DNA of 64,000 bases from positions 3,962 through 67,961 of the forward strand of contig JAFTLJ010000065.1 of the NCBI GenBank assembly GCA_017456005.1. Direction: 5' to 3'. Within the stretch, counting starts at the first letter, position 1. The number at the start of each line of letters is the position of its first letter. Made by a program: the position numbers and the translations under genes. This DNA comes from Clostridia bacterium. GTDB taxonomy: Bacteria > Bacillota > Clostridia > Oscillospirales > CAG-272. The notes beneath the pieces are model-generated. The model made no database searches. It was not told where the DNA came from and saw nothing but the letters and a program-made list of their open reading frames with translations. Positions 10,284 to 14,395 of the stretch are shown here, one piece after another.

Positions 10284-10799
10284 ATGAAAATAATTATAGC
10301 TTCAGATATACACGGCTCGGCATATTGGTGCGCAAAACTGCTGGAAGCATACCGCGCAGAGGGCGCAAAGATGCTCCTTTTGCTCGGTGACGTGCTCTAC
10401 CACGGACCGCGCAATAATTTGCCCGACGAATACGACCCCAAAAAAGTTATAGCTATGCTCAACGAAATGAAAAGCGAAATAATCTGCGTGCGCGGAAACT
10501 GCGACACGGAGGTGGACCAGATGGTGCTGGATTTCCCCATTCTTTCGCAAAACGCAGTTGTCTTTGCCGACGGCGTGAAGATCTACGCCACACACGGGCA
10601 TAAATTCAACAAAGATAACCTGCCCCCCCTATCTGCTGGGGATGTGCTCGCATACGGGCATACACACGTCGCTCTCGACACGTTGGTGGGCGGCGTGCGC
10701 TGCCTCAACCCCGGCTCCGTTTCCATTCCCAAGGAAAACACGGGGCACGGATACATCATTTTTGAAAACGGCGAGTTTACGAGGAAATTGCTTTATTAA
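10284..10799 (+). CDS. YfcE/MJ0936-family metallophosphoesterase
   Basis: 171 aa: 'IIIASDIHGS', 'LLLGDVLYHGPRN', 'VRGNCD', 'ATHGH', 'YGHTH'. Confidence 0.85.
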   Translation: MKIIIASDIHGSAYWCAKLLEAYRAEGAKMLLLLGDVLYHGPRNNLPDEYDPKKVIAMLNEMKSEIICVRGNCDTEVDQMVLDFPILSQNAVVFADGVKIYATHGHKFNKDNLPPLSAGDVLAYGHTHVALDTLVGGVRCLNPGSVSIPKENTGHGYIIFENGEFTRKLLY

Positions 10800-10803
10800 A
10801 CCG

Positions 10804-10832
10804 TTGACACAGCGCTAAAAAAGTGATATTAT
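10804..10832 (+). promoter_or_regulatory. Strong sigma-A-type promoter of the B12-regulated operon
   Basis: TTGACA (10804-10809), 17-nt spacer, TGaTATTAT (10824-10832). Confidence 0.6.
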
Positions 10833-10850
10833 AAATAAAAATGAATATCT

Positions 10851-11075
10851 TGCGGAGCGGTTGTACTTGGTCGGTACATTAAAAAGGAAAGTACGGTGAA
10901 AATCCGTCGCAACAGCCATTGCCGTGATAGAGCGTGTGCTCTTCAGTCGGAATGCTTGCCCCTCCGTCAGTTAGGGTAACGGAAACTATCGGAACACGAT
11001 TTGGGTCGATAAATTCACGCCTGCGGTGTGTCATAGGGCTCAAGAATACGTAAAGTATTCTTTTCTCCCTTTTCC
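10851..11075 (+). promoter_or_regulatory. Cobalamin riboswitch (aptamer about 10851-10968, plus first terminator 11042-11075)
   Basis: 'AAAGGAAAGUACGGUGAAAAUCCGU' core. A degenerate B12-box region 'ACAGCCAUUGCCGUGA'. 'GUCGGAAUGCUUGCC' resembles the consensus GUCAGGAUACCUGCC. P1 pairs GCGGAG (10852-10857) with CUCCGU (10962-10967). Hairpin AAGAATAC/GTATTCTT precedes a T/C-rich tract. Confidence 0.7.
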
Positions 11076-11248
11076 TTCCGCAAACAAGAATTTATTCAAC
11101 CGAAATTCTGCGACCTCCGAGCGATGTATTTGCGAGAAAATTCGGGTGCGGAGGACACAGTAAGGTATTACCTTACAAGGACGACAAACACGAAAGAGCC
11201 GTAAAGACACGCTCCGAGGCGTATTCAGATAGTTTTAGTCACCCTAAC
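10970..11248. repeat. 21-nt inverted-repeat pair bracketing a 237-bp segment of the leader
   Basis: GTTAGGGTAACGGAAACTATC (10970-10990) versus GATAGTTTTAGTCACCCTAAC (11228-11248). 18 of 21 positions are complementary. Confidence 0.5.
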
Positions 11249-11343
11249 GATATATCGGGCACTTTGGGCAAAATGGGAAGTGTCGCCGTTTTAAAAATCC
11301 GCTTTTCGCAAACGCGGTTTGCGCGGTTTTTCAAAAACACTCA

Positions 11344-11381
11344 GGCGATTTTCCACCTCATTGTGGAAAATCGCCTTTTCT
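11344..11381 (+). terminator. Strong intrinsic terminator immediately upstream of the RBS
   Basis: 13-bp stem GGCGATTTTCCAC / GTGGAAAATCGCC, loop CTCATT, then TTTTCT. It lies about 50 nt before ATG 11430. Confidence 0.75.
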
Positions 11382-11429
11382 GATAAAACAGGTATTTGTT
11401 TTAAAAATATTTTTAAAGGAGTGTTTAAA

Positions 11430-12110
11430 ATGAAAAACACAAAAAGAATTATTTCACTCGCGCTCGCGTGCTTGATGCTCGCTCTCTCTGCACTATGCTT
11501 TGCCTCTTGCGGCGAAGCAAAAGGCCCTTTCGTATACGTTACCGTTGCAGATGAAAACGGCGAAATCGTGGCTCGCTATGAAAAAGTGGAGTTTGCCGAT
11601 GGTATGACGGTCGATTCGGCACTTTCCGCTCTCCACGCAGAAAAATGCGAAGGCGGATACGCTTCAGCAGAAAGCGCATATGGGCTTTCTATGACAAAGC
11701 TTTGGGGGATGGAAAACGGTGGCTCCTATGGCTACTACGTAAACAATGCTTCCCCTGCCTCGCTTGCGGATACTCTTACCGAAGGCGACCACGTTTACGC
11801 TTTCGTTTACACAGACACAGAAGCGTTTTCCGATACATATTCCTTCTTTGCATCCCCCGCAGCGGAGGTTGAAGCAGGCGAAAGCCTCGTGCTCACGCTT
11901 TCCTGCGCGGGATATGATGCAAACTGGGCGCCAGTAACGCTCCCCGTTGAAGGCGCAAAAATCAGCGTAGACGGCGCGGCTACAACACATACGACAGATG
12001 CAGAAGGCAAAGCCCTGCTCACGTTCGAGAAAAAGGGAACGTATGTGGTAACAGCGGCACACGAAAGCAAAAACCTGGTTACACCCTTCGTTATCGTAAC
12101 AGTTAAATAA
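11430..12110 (+). CDS. DUF4430-domain lipoprotein (transcobalamin beta-domain-like)
   Basis: Start moved to M38 of the ORF (GGAG SD at 11417-11420). Signal peptide with lipobox 'FASC'. DUF4430-like 'GSYGYYVNN...GDHVYAFVY'. Confidence 0.8.
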   Translation: MKNTKRIISLALACLMLALSALCFASCGEAKGPFVYVTVADENGEIVARYEKVEFADGMTVDSALSALHAEKCEGGYASAESAYGLSMTKLWGMENGGSYGYYVNNASPASLADTLTEGDHVYAFVYTDTEAFSDTYSFFASPAAEVEAGESLVLTLSCAGYDANWAPVTLPVEGAKISVDGAATTHTTDAEGKALLTFEKKGTYVVTAAHESKNLVTPFVIVTVK

Positions 12111-13198
12111 TGAAAAAATTTCTTTCCCTTCTTTTATGCGCCGTGTTCGTATTTGTGTGTGCCCTGCCCTCAGCGGCAAACTATACAGGCGAAGCAGAGG
12201 CAATAATCGCATATAAAGCAGAGCAAAGCGGCGCGAAAAATACGGCGGAATGGGCAGAAAAGCTCGCCCACGGCGCAGGAAACGGCGCGGAGTGGTATGT
12301 GCTGGCACTAAGCGCACTCGGCGCGGAGGCAGATTTCGGCGCATATGCGCAAGCGCTTGCAGATTACCTCGGCAAAAGCACCTTAAACGCCACAAATGCG
12401 CAAAGGTGCGCGCTCGCTTTTCTCGTCGCCGGCATAAGGAGCGCGTATATAGACCAAACCGCGGAAAATACCATCGGCTCTATGGGCATAATGAGCTATA
12501 TCTGGGGCTTGATACTTCTTAACAACGGCGCAAAAAGCACAAAATTCACCCCGGAAGCATTGGCAGAAAAAATAGCGTCTATGCACCTTGCAGACGGCGG
12601 ATTTGCACTTTCCGGTACGGTATCAAACGTTGACGTGACGGCTATGGCGCTCGCCGCCCTCGCGCCTCACCGCCAAAACACGGCGGTAAACGAAGCTGTG
12701 GAAAGCGCACTTACCTTCCTTTCCTCGGCGCAGACAGAGCGCGGCGGTTTTGTAAACTATGGCACGGAAAACTGCGAAAGCGCGGCACAGGTCATAATCG
12801 CGCTCACCGCCCTCGGCATTAACCCCGAAACAGATGCGCGTTTTATAAAAAACGGCAACAGTGCGCTCGATTCTATGCGGAGCTTTGCTCTCGCGGGCGG
12901 CGGATACGCACATACGCAAGGCGGCGCGGAAAGCGATATGGCAAGCGCGCAAGCCCTGCAGGCGTTTGTCGCCATAGAAAGATTTAAAGAAGGCAAAACA
13001 CCGCTTTTTGAGCTTGGCATTCAGCCGGACCGCACCCCCACAGGCTTTCGCGATGTGGGCGACGTACAAAACGAGGCACAAACACCGCCAAAAACCGACA
13101 CAAACAAAATTAAAACCGTCGTTTGCATAGCGGTCATAGCCGCGTGCGCCGTGGGAATAGGCATCGCAGCTCTTTTACCAAAAAAGAAAAAAGATTAG
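12110..13198 (+). CDS. Secreted, C-terminally membrane-anchored prenyltransferase/terpene-cyclase-repeat (alpha/alpha-toroid) protein
   Basis: 362 aa with a TAATG overlap onto the previous gene. It has a signal peptide and repeated 'GGF/GGY...A..AL..AL' toroid repeats. The C-terminus is a TM helix plus 'KKKKD'. Confidence 0.75.
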   Translation: MKKFLSLLLCAVFVFVCALPSAANYTGEAEAIIAYKAEQSGAKNTAEWAEKLAHGAGNGAEWYVLALSALGAEADFGAYAQALADYLGKSTLNATNAQRCALAFLVAGIRSAYIDQTAENTIGSMGIMSYIWGLILLNNGAKSTKFTPEALAEKIASMHLADGGFALSGTVSNVDVTAMALAALAPHRQNTAVNEAVESALTFLSSAQTERGGFVNYGTENCESAAQVIIALTALGINPETDARFIKNGNSALDSMRSFALAGGGYAHTQGGAESDMASAQALQAFVAIERFKEGKTPLFELGIQPDRTPTGFRDVGDVQNEAQTPPKTDTNKIKTVVCIAVIAACAVGIGIAALLPKKKKD

Positions 13199-13200
13199 AG

Positions 13201-13233
13201 AAAAACAGACCGTGAAAACGGTCTGTTTTTTCT
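13201..13233. terminator. Bidirectional terminator, copy 1
   Basis: AAAAACAGACCG-TGAAAA-CGGTCTGTTTTTTCT. Confidence 0.85.
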
Positions 13234-13234
13234 G

Positions 13235-14395
13235 TTATTCTTGTGTTTTTGCCACCCATTCCTGCCAGCGCGGGTCAGCTTTGATTTCCCTTTCAACCTC
13301 ATGGTAAGACGGGTTGCACCAAAAAGGCCAATCGTCCGGCAGGTGTTTTGCGATTTCTTTCGGGTTTCCCGCACGGTATTTCACAAAAGACACCAGCGGA
13401 GCGGTAAGAGTATGCTCCTCTCCGTCGAGCAGGTTTTCGAGCGCTCTTGCGTGCTTCAGCGCTTCATAGAGCGATGCAAATGCATCATCGTGATATCCGC
13501 GTTCCCATTGCAGCCTGGAAAGATAAAGATAAAGTTTTATTAGTATATCGTGGCATTTGCCCATATTGCCGTCATCGCAAATCAAATAAAAGATTGATAT
13601 TGCGCCCTTAACCTTTTCAATGGGCATATCGCTATCATAATTGCGAAGGTTAGCAATCAGCCCGAAAACAAGCTGTTCGGCAAATTCATTTGCAGCTTTC
13701 AAAAGAAATTCGCCTATATATTTCGCGCCTTCTTTGCCGTCTGTACCATCGGCAAGCAAAAATTCCCTGCACTGGCACAGCCCCGGCATTCTATTCGCGT
13801 AAAAAATAGCTTTTTCATATTCACCGAAAGTCCTGTAGAGCGGAACAAGAATGGCAATCGCTCTAGTAAAGACAGTGTTGTCTTTCACATTGTCCACAAG
13901 ACGCTTGCAAATTTTTTCGGTTTCCAACCAATACTCGTTTTTCTTATGGTGGTCGAAATTATATTGGATAAATCCCTCGTCATCATAATAAAGCCATCCG
14001 TGATGTCTTCGCCAGCCAGCCTCCCAAAGTGTTTCCGCAAGGGTAATCAGCAAACGCTCGTTGTTCGGAAATTCCGCGAGGCCTTCGCGCAGTATGGAAA
14101 GACATTCGTCTACCCAACCATCGTTGCCGTCGGTTTTTATTTCAAATGCATCTATTTTCTTAATAATCTCATTGATTTTTCTTTCTCTGTCGTTGTGATA
14201 GCCGAAAAGCTCGTCAATCGTCACACCGAAATAGTTGGCAATCGAAGGCATAATCTCCATATCGGGGTAGCTTCCGCCCGATTCCCAACGTGAAACCGCC
14301 TGGGAAGTAACGCCGAGCGCTTCGGCAAGCGCTTCTTGCGTGCGCCCGTCACGGTGACGGAGTTCACGTATTTTTGTTCCTAAATTAAGTTGCAT
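13235..14395 (-). CDS. XRE-family HTH regulator with a long helical (TPR-like) C-terminal domain
   Basis: Start taken at 'MQLNLGTKIRELR' (GGAGGA SD). HTH 'RTQEALAEALGVTSQAVSRWESG'. Confidence 0.8.
   Translation of the reverse strand: MQLNLGTKIRELRHRDGRTQEALAEALGVTSQAVSRWESGGSYPDMEIMPSIANYFGVTIDELFGYHNDRERKINEIIKKIDAFEIKTDGNDGWVDECLSILREGLAEFPNNERLLITLAETLWEAGWRRHHGWLYYDDEGFIQYNFDHHKKNEYWLETEKICKRLVDNVKDNTVFTRAIAILVPLYRTFGEYEKAIFYANRMPGLCQCREFLLADGTDGKEGAKYIGEFLLKAANEFAEQLVFGLIANLRNYDSDMPIEKVKGAISIFYLICDDGNMGKCHDILIKLYLYLSRLQWERGYHDDAFASLYEALKHARALENLLDGEEHTLTAPLVSFVKYRAGNPKEIAKHLPDDWPFWCNPSYHEVEREIKADPRWQEWVAKTQE

Follow-up and report, generated by a model that had tools for sequence, protein, structure and literature searches.

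A riboswitch-headed gene pair of a clostridial bacterium as the 5' half of a broken operon with a probable role in surface corrinoid capture

Described capture systems and the present locus

Secreted or surface-attached Gram-positive proteins that combine a toroid with an SLBB domain were predicted in 2007 to bind extracellular B12 (Burroughs, Balaji, Iyer, Aravind, Biol Direct 2:4, PMC1796856). Here we analyze a two-gene operon behind a cobalamin riboswitch in a 64,000-nucleotide (nt) stretch of DNA, referred to below as the window, from Clostridia bacterium (CAG-272, Oscillospirales; assembly GCA_017456005.1, contig JAFTLJ010000065.1, positions 3,962-67,961). The 2 genes, open reading frames 1 and 2 (ORF1 and ORF2), encode a predicted surface lipoprotein and a toroid protein. 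We consider it probable that their function is the capture of corrinoids at the cell surface on behalf of an ECF-type (energy-coupling factor) transporter resembling ECF-CbrT. Their operon has been broken in two, with the window's contig (C54) carrying one part and contig C91 of the same genome the other. The assembly is 2.12 Mb in 101 contigs and is 94.65% complete. To our knowledge, the 2007 B12-binding predictions for toroid plus SLBB proteins have never been tested biochemically.

The present proteins are like those of the 2007 prediction in pairing a toroid with a beta-grasp domain of the transcobalamin C-terminal type, now called DUF4430, and ORF2 together with P0241, a protein encoded on contig C91, correspond to one such protein cut in two. 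Some of the earlier proteins also bear immunoglobulin (Ig)-fold domains and Gram-positive anchors, a trait shared with those described here. The present system is unlike them in that its domains sit on separate polypeptides at separate loci and in that a third partner, ORF1, is always present. A linker made of a hairpin of 2 transmembrane (TM) helices and a linkage to ECF genes, both found here, are not among the features given in the sections of that paper considered here (PMC1796856).

A comparable layout is known from Lactobacillus sakei, where lsa1836-1840 form a single five-gene operon for the ECF components S, AA', and T together with a "beta" protein (Lsa1839) and an "alpha" protein (Lsa1840), and where the authors suggest a role for the beta and alpha proteins in collecting the substrate and delivering it to the S component (bioRxiv 10.1101/864751). 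That system differs in being assigned to heme, in having no reported riboswitch, and in lacking an ORF1-type protein; conversely, the alpha gene here stands apart from the beta and ECF genes, behind a cobalamin riboswitch. The general idea of such capture is already known, having been published in 2007 (PMC1796856) and again in 2019 for L. sakei.

ECF-CbrT of Lactobacillus delbrueckii (structure 6FNP) transports cobalamin and cobinamide, and hemin does not compete (Santos et al. 2018, PMC5997447). The S component encoded on C91 matches CbrT, and T and AA' components are present beside it. In L. delbrueckii, CbrT relies on an ECF module that is shared, and no extracellular accessory proteins are known for it, whereas the locus described here has a dedicated module (the group I layout) and 3 surface modules. 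The animal proteins transcobalamin, intrinsic factor, and haptocorrin (2bb6, 4zrp) offer a likeness in architecture, with an alpha6/alpha6 toroid and a DUF4430/SLBB beta domain holding B12 between them. These are, in contrast, soluble single chains, and neither ORF2, nor the profile of the fused proteins described below, nor P0241 gave a sequence match to any transcobalamin chain in the PDB. ORF2 is no more similar to transcobalamin than to the prenyltransferases, terpene cyclases, and glycoside hydrolases of that fold.

How Gram-positive gut anaerobes that do not produce B12 compete for it is poorly understood. In Bacteroides, capture at the cell surface by BtuG and BtuH is known to be decisive; the folds of these 2 proteins are unrelated to those of the window's proteins, and they feed the outer-membrane, TonB-dependent BtuB in a diderm cell. 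We know of no equivalent of BtuG or BtuH shown for Clostridia. The analogy is one of function, since these Bacteroides surface lipoproteins are accessory proteins of the B12 regulon that capture corrinoids for a membrane transporter (BtuH: PMC8941943).

What is new in the present locus is the fission into 2 loci, the presence of the riboswitch with the accessory pair, ORF1 as an obligate third module that lacks a family model, and an insertion inside the riboswitch. Its value lies in these details and not in a new kind of system. With its relatives, the locus defines a testable surface apparatus of 3 modules (ORF1, toroid, and DUF4430) on an ECF-CbrT-type transporter under a B12 riboswitch, in which the riboswitch stayed with the accessory pair and not with the transporter, and the modules are already separate genes, a practical advantage when they are to be expressed and reconstituted.

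The split toroid-DUF4430 protein and the broken operon

ORF2 (12110-13198; all features of the operon are on the plus strand) encodes 362 amino acids (aa), with a signal peptide, a toroid, a linker, a TM helix, and a terminal KKKKD. That ORF2 is an alpha/alpha toroid had been proposed from the sequence alone (hereafter the original prediction), and the structural analysis agrees. The AlphaFold2 (AF2) model, with a predicted local distance difference test (pLDDT) of 88.2, is an all-helical toroid at about residues 25-300, after which come a linker without order and a helix (residues 332-355); this helix precedes the KKKKD, as expected for the C-terminal TM helix and basic tail that had also been proposed. 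Foldseek returned toroids, among them squalene-hopene cyclase, drimenyl diphosphate synthase, the farnesyltransferase beta subunit, and GH105/GH88-type hydrolases. Pfam gave sub-threshold matches to Prenyltrans (23.2 bits versus a cut-off of 26.5) and SQHop_cyclase_C (19.8 versus 26.1) and no other match to ORF2, while PF00432 is found in the precomputed annotation of many ORF2 homologs. NCBIfam had no useful match for either ORF1 or ORF2.

The resemblance of ORF2 to the transcobalamin alpha domain, another element of the original prediction, stands at the level of the fold, but transcobalamin is not singled out and there is no sequence match. Transcobalamin ranks 24, 29, and 32 in the Foldseek results (E about 1e-2, TM-score 0.40-0.48), with generic toroids scoring equally well or better. 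Searches of the PDB with ORF2 by phmmer or with the family profiles A2 and A5 found no transcobalamin chain at E <= 10; the profiles instead retrieved drimenyl diphosphate synthase (7xq4) and squalene-hopene cyclase, with E values of 1e-7 for A2 and 1e-12 for A5. We therefore rejected sequence-level membership of ORF2 in the eukaryotic cobalamin-binding family.

These matches raise the question of whether ORF2 could be an extracellular enzyme of the terpene cyclase/prenyltransferase type that acts on an envelope lipid and is linked to B12 through regulation only. Drimenyl diphosphate synthase and squalene-hopene cyclase are its closest solved relatives by profile, and the central Asp in the catalytic SDVDDT motif of 7xq4 has its aligned counterpart in Asp175 of ORF2, a residue invariant in the family. 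However, ORF2 has SNVDVT at this place and the family consensus is SDVDVT, so that the motif is degenerate, with its last Asp replaced by Val, and an intact catalytic DxDD motif is not present in ORF2. The protein is also placed outside the membrane, away from prenyl diphosphates, and B12 riboswitches precede the loci in which it is fused to, or lies beside, DUF4430 and ECF-CbrT genes. We give almost no credence to an enzymatic role and favor one in capture.

Comparison with homologs shows that ORF2 is an incomplete version of a larger protein. The nearest homologs, at 44% identity or more, are ORF2-sized (about 360 aa), while from about 47% identity down there are hundreds of homologs of 500-620 aa that carry PF14478, the DUF4430 model. 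The order in these fusion proteins is signal peptide, toroid, linker, TM helix, short K/R-rich loop, TM helix, and DUF4430, and both globular domains would therefore be extracellular and joined by a TM hairpin. Residues 30-360 of ORF2 align to residues 43-378 of one such fusion of 538 aa, P0158 (46% identity, E 3e-87), and the alignment stops in the K-rich loop. The remainder, P0158 380-532, aligns to residues 2-163 of P0241 (38% identity, E 9e-34), which starts at the second TM helix, the part lacking in ORF2. P0241 is 178 aa long and consists of an N-terminal TM helix and a DUF4430 domain at residues 86-163 (PF14478 at 63 bits versus 23.8, E 3.6e-17); a phmmer search with it against the PDB gave no meaningful match and no transcobalamin chain. 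Judged from these alignments, ORF2 is the toroid half of a widespread clostridial toroid-TM-TM-DUF4430 protein, ending just past the first TM helix. The original prediction had envisaged a two-piece split protein made of ORF1 and ORF2; ORF2 is indeed one piece, but the other is P0241 and not ORF1.

P0241 is the first gene of a run on contig C91 (locus L007 4155-7864, corresponding to C91:39154-42863), which we found by searching the organism's own genome with the S component of a relative and with a CbiQ model, both of which led there. It is followed by a CbiQ-type T component (46.1 bits), a fused double ABC_tran ATPase (AA'), and an S component with an ECF-ribofla_trS match, whose sole significant match in the PDB is 6FNP_A (E 1.6e-8). 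We conclude that this operon is likely the importer served by the window's proteins. No BtuFCD or ECF transporter gene adjoins the pair in the window, and the expectation that its partner would be encoded elsewhere is borne out by this ECF-CbrT-type operon. The operon begins about 165 nt past a tRNA-Gly gene and that gene's terminator. No consensus promoter was found between the tRNA-Gly gene and P0241, and no riboswitch was found in the surrounding 15 kb at E <= 0.1.

The same terminator overlaps, on the minus strand of L007 (3957-4065), a sub-threshold match to the Bacteroides small RNA BTnc231 (41.3 bits versus 80.4, E 1.3e-5), which is probably a chance match to a hairpin.

Because a system of similar layout has been assigned to heme, we considered whether heme or another tetrapyrrole could be the ligand in place of B12. 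On the basis of deletion and complementation, L. sakei lsa1836-1840 was reported to act in heme uptake in vitro, and heme was docked between homology models of its beta-like and alpha-like proteins (bioRxiv 10.1101/864751). Against this, a cobalamin riboswitch heads the operon both here and in relatives, and the S component matches CbrT, whose cobalamin uptake was not competed by hemin (PMC5997447). Heme or another tetrapyrrole as the ligand in place of B12 thus seems to us quite improbable. MetH, with S-methyl_trans, Pterin_bind, B12-binding_2, and B12-binding domains, is present in the genome, as is a B12-binding radical S-adenosylmethionine (SAM) protein, and CobS was not found in the 94.65%-complete genome. 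This is consistent with an organism that uses B12 and is unable to assemble cobamides.

The gene order in relatives shows how the 2 loci belong together. In L014 and L015 the order is ORF1-like gene, fused toroid::DUF4430 gene, CbiQ-type T, AA', and S, and in L015 this is preceded by an RF00174 match of 84.5 bits; L001 has RF00174 (79.6 bits), T, AA', S, ORF1-like gene, and fused gene. Cutting the order of L014 and L015 in the cytoplasmic loop between the 2 TM helices yields exactly the 2 loci of the present genome, with riboswitch, ORF1, and toroid-TM1 on C54 and TM2-DUF4430, T, AA', and S on C91. By this comparison, the window holds the riboswitch-bearing 5' half of a probable corrinoid capture and uptake operon that relatives have kept whole and that was broken within the fused gene in this genus.

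The split is old, as it is seen in all 11 genomes of the genus: each has ORF1 next to an ORF2 of 358-376 aa on one contig and, on another, a DUF4430 frame of 180-219 aa that stands alone. Fused frames of 506-665 aa occur in several other genera, and close homologs come from sources named "Clostridia bacterium" and "Ruminococcaceae bacterium". Of 61 genomes, 34 had DUF4430, 31 had the toroid, and 20 had ORF1, and all 20 genomes with ORF1 had both of the other modules. The modules are also fused in alternative ways. In P0284, residues 33-236 correspond to ORF1 (51% identity, E 7e-59) and residues 265-523 to the toroid (37%, E 2e-41), followed by 3 SLH repeats; downstream of the P0284 gene lie genes for a separate DUF4430 protein and for an ECF T component. 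The arrangements therefore include ORF1 with toroid::DUF4430, ORF1::toroid with DUF4430, and, as here, 3 separate proteins, a pattern expected of the parts of one complex.

ORF1 as a third surface module

ORF1 (11430-12110) encodes 226 aa and shares 1 base with ORF2, at 12110, in the TAATG overlap noted in the original prediction. Its assignment as a lipoprotein also holds on inspection of the sequence, in that the N-terminal hydrophobic stretch ends in LCFASC followed by GE, which makes FASC the putative lipobox and Cys27 the putative lipidated residue. A lipobox of the form [FL]-x-[SAG]-C is conserved in all ORF1 homologs of 226-232 aa, while longer homologs have an LPXTG-like motif or a C-terminal TM helix in its place, so that members of the family are always tethered to the surface. 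In total, we found 668 ORF1 homologs. The AF2 model of ORF1 (pLDDT 90.7) has 2 domains. The N-terminal domain (aa 30-136, nt 11517-11837; hereafter the N-domain) is beta-grasp-like and runs strand, strand, helix, beta-hairpin, and more strands, and aa 137-226 form an Ig/transthyretin-like beta-sandwich. Pfam gave weak matches to CarboxypepD_reg, DUF4198, and Big_1 in the second domain and none in the first. A Foldseek search of the PDB with the full model, in which the C-terminal domain outweighs the N-domain, gave Ig-like domains only.

ORF1 had been described as made of a DUF4430 domain, and this was not confirmed. PF14478 did not match ORF1 at E <= 0.1, and it matched none of 43 members of the ORF1 family at E <= 10, none of 9 multidomain relatives, and none of 120 homologs in their precomputed Pfam annotation. 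A more sensitive comparison of the N-domain with DUF4430 by hhalign gave a score of 25.4 (E 9.6e-4, 82 columns in register) at a probability of 22%. In a control with 100 column-shuffled profiles the mean score was 12.3 (standard deviation 2.6, maximum 21.8), and 0 of 100 reached 25.4. In this register, TVDSAL of the N-domain aligns with TVFDIL of DUF4430, YGYYVNN with GWSFLVNG, and EGDHVYAFVYT with DGDVIEWVYT. Hidden Markov model (HMM)-versus-sequence searches between the N-domain and DUF4430 gave weak matches in register, the best at E 9e-5 in a set of 120, while the N-domain profile had no match among PDB sequences at E <= 10.

In the transcobalamin-like SLBB clade, as described in 2007, the beta-grasp carries an inserted hairpin that follows the helix (PMC1796856). 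The order of secondary structure elements in the AF2 model of the N-domain fits that description, and the N-domain may be an SLBB domain that has diverged very far. By the family's own test it does not belong to DUF4430, and ORF1 is best described as a separate, conserved third module that is at most distantly DUF4430-like.

This distant likeness bears on a further possibility, namely that ORF1 as the DUF4430/SLBB-type beta domain and ORF2 as the alpha domain form a corrinoid clamp by themselves, with P0241 in another role such as docking to the S component. This reading and the favored one are not mutually exclusive. The genes are translationally coupled, and the 2 modules form a single chain in P0284; the modeled topology of the N-domain is that of the transcobalamin-like SLBB clade (PMC1796856), and the hhalign score of 25.4 over 82 columns exceeds the shuffled maximum of 21.8. 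Yet the count of 0 of 43 for PF14478 in the ORF1 family, the hhalign probability of 22%, the lack of a PDB match for the N-domain profile, and the Ig-only Foldseek result all speak against it. In addition, DUF4430 is present in 20 of 20 ORF1 genomes and is mostly linked covalently to the toroid, which indicates that the toroid already has a beta partner. Since all 20 of these genomes contain both other modules, ORF1 cannot be "the" beta half. We consider a clamp of ORF1 and ORF2 alone to be unlikely and prefer an assembly in which all 3 modules take part.

Searches with the N-domain alone retrieved 744 clusters at 50% identity, 410 of them at E <= 1e-10, and the domain is covered by no Pfam model. 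The proteins include surface proteins of 500-3700 aa with 2-5 tandem copies of the N-domain plus Ig-like unit (tandem units occur in proteins P0242-P0388 and at L017 641-2773). In 9 multidomain N-domain proteins, P0284 among them, Pfam recognizes only Ig-like domains and anchors, including dockerin, SLH, choline-binding repeats, and a pilin-type N-terminal methylation leader. We raise, tentatively and with more doubt than confidence, the suggestion that the N-domain (11517-11837) defines a large, unmodeled family of corrinoid-binding or corrinoid-relay domains. If so, Clostridia of the gut and rumen would display multivalent, B12-capturing surface "antennae", and, for bacteria, the accepted picture of transcobalamin-like capture by an alpha and a beta domain would lack a part.

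The riboswitch leader, its insertion, and a proposed mode of action

The operon is preceded by a sigma-70-type promoter at 10804-10832 (TTGACA-17-TATTAT, with an extended -10 TG), which matches the consensus at 11 of 12 positions and is the sole promoter-like site in 10600-13400, in agreement with the strong promoter originally proposed. Its -35 and -10 hexamers are conserved in the leader alignment with L008 and L009. The cobalamin riboswitch proposed downstream of it is supported by a covariance scan: in a local Rfam scan of 10780-11450, RF00174 (clan CL00101) matched at 10841-10977 over the full model (positions 1-189) with 42.4 bits, above the gathering score of 31.5 (E 2.7e-9). A scan of the whole window with gathering thresholds and fast filters gave no match at all and missed this one, which is an artifact of the filters, as the local and genome searches recover the aptamer. 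The aptamer is a short form, with 9 nt in place of the 62-nt peripheral extension of the consensus. It is the only RF00174 match in a search of the whole 2.12-Mb genome and is provisionally the genome's single B12 riboswitch. Orthologous aptamers match RF00174 in L008 (42.7 bits) and L011 (39 bits), and L016, another locus of the split form, has a sub-threshold match to the adenosylcobalamin model RF01482 (36.1 versus 50).

Comparison of the leader with those of L008 (ORF2 77% identical) and L009 (about 52%), which have the same gene order, showed conservation of the promoter, of the aptamer, and of the last 185 nt. These last positions contain a candidate expression platform. Segments capable of alternative pairing lie at 11247-11342 (kept in L008 and L009, where this part comes straight after the aptamer; fold z -5.2), directly upstream of a strong intrinsic terminator at 11343-11381 with a perfect 14-bp stem, a 6-nt loop, and a T-run (stem to 11376; kept in L008). 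In the predicted fold, AACACTC just 5' of the terminator pairs with GGAGTGTT of the ribosome-binding site.

Some 450 nt separate the end of the aptamer from the start codon, a distance explained by a 271-nt insertion (10974-11244) between the aptamer and the expression platform. The leaders of L008 and L009 can be aligned apart from this segment, which they lack. The uninterrupted L009 leader reads ...GCTTACCGATAC... at the insertion point, and the insertion is flanked by TA on both sides. Its inverted-repeat arms (10970-10998 and 11220-11248) are 29 nt long and imperfect, with 83% complementarity, and the whole folds as one long hairpin (-95.9 kcal/mol, z -6.4). There is one copy in the organism's own genome, and among 60 relatives only a congener, G002, has one, at 96% identity and directly 3' of that genome's aptamer, the same placement as in the window. 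The insertion has no Rfam match and no match in a plasmid collection. With a single copy in its own genome, one congener among 60 relatives, and no plasmid match, a multi-copy mobile element was rejected as an explanation. Judged solely by its inverted repeats and TA flanks, the insertion looks like a miniature inverted-repeat transposable element (MITE); a MITE-like element and a structured RNA specific to the lineage are both possible.

An important question is whether the riboswitch still regulates the operon. The insertion lies exactly between the 3' end of the aptamer and the conserved platform; within it, at about 11042-11075, an AT-rich hairpin precedes a tract rich in T. It could uncouple the aptamer from the terminator, leaving the pair constitutive or, through premature termination inside the insert, barely expressed. 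On the other hand, the insert pairs with itself in a long hairpin that brings both flanks together, so that aptamer and platform may stay spatially adjacent; it has been retained at 96% identity at the equivalent site in a second species, and the aptamer, the platform, and both genes are still intact. Loss of regulation is a serious possibility, although we think it the less probable outcome by a clear measure, and we proceed on the reading that the riboswitch acts with the insertion in place.

On that reading, when B12 is scarce the aptamer would be empty, the terminator (stem 11343-11376) would not form, and transcription would read through. Coupled translation would then yield ORF1 and ORF2 at a fixed ratio. 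ORF1, held by its lipid anchor, would assemble with the toroid and the DUF4430 protein, each held by a TM helix, on the outer face of the membrane, where the 3 modules would jointly hold a corrinoid in the manner of the alpha and beta domains of transcobalamin. The corrinoid would be handed to the CbrT-like S component, imported by the ECF module, and used by MetH and the B12-dependent radical SAM enzyme.

Several observations weigh against this reading. The ECF half has no detectable riboswitch, so that co-regulation of the 2 halves is hypothetical, and the insertion may have weakened or uncoupled regulation in the accessory half. Among relatives, the ORF1-type loci L009, L014, and L017 have no Rfam match at E <= 0.01. 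Foldseek places transcobalamin only among many generic toroids at E about 1e-2, and sequence profiles put the toroid nearest to terpene cyclases and retrieved no transcobalamin from the PDB. The statements that the genome has only one such riboswitch and no CobS are provisional, because the assembly is 94.65% complete and in 101 contigs. We know of no binding or transport data for any member of the accessory families. Finally, the one studied relative of this layout, L. sakei lsa1836-1840, has been linked to heme and not to B12 (bioRxiv 10.1101/864751).

The operon is closed by a terminator with a 14-bp stem and a T-run at 13200-13231. Its Pfam-annotated neighbors in the window are a Metallophos_2 phosphoesterase gene upstream and, on the opposite strand downstream, a gene for an HTH_3-TPR regulator. 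The Metallophos_2 (YfcE-like) gene, of 171-174 aa, lies directly 5' of the riboswitch operon in every split-form locus examined (window 10284-10799; L008 3085-3600; L009 7428-7943; L016 6003-6527) and is not present at the fused-form loci; it is probably a matter of plain synteny. A small called gene of 60-73 aa with an HNH_repeat Pfam match occurs immediately upstream of the B12 operons of 2 relatives, at L015 6727-6909, between the riboswitch and the ORF1-like gene, and at L002 233-454, just before the CbiQ-type T gene, and may be a miscalled leader region.

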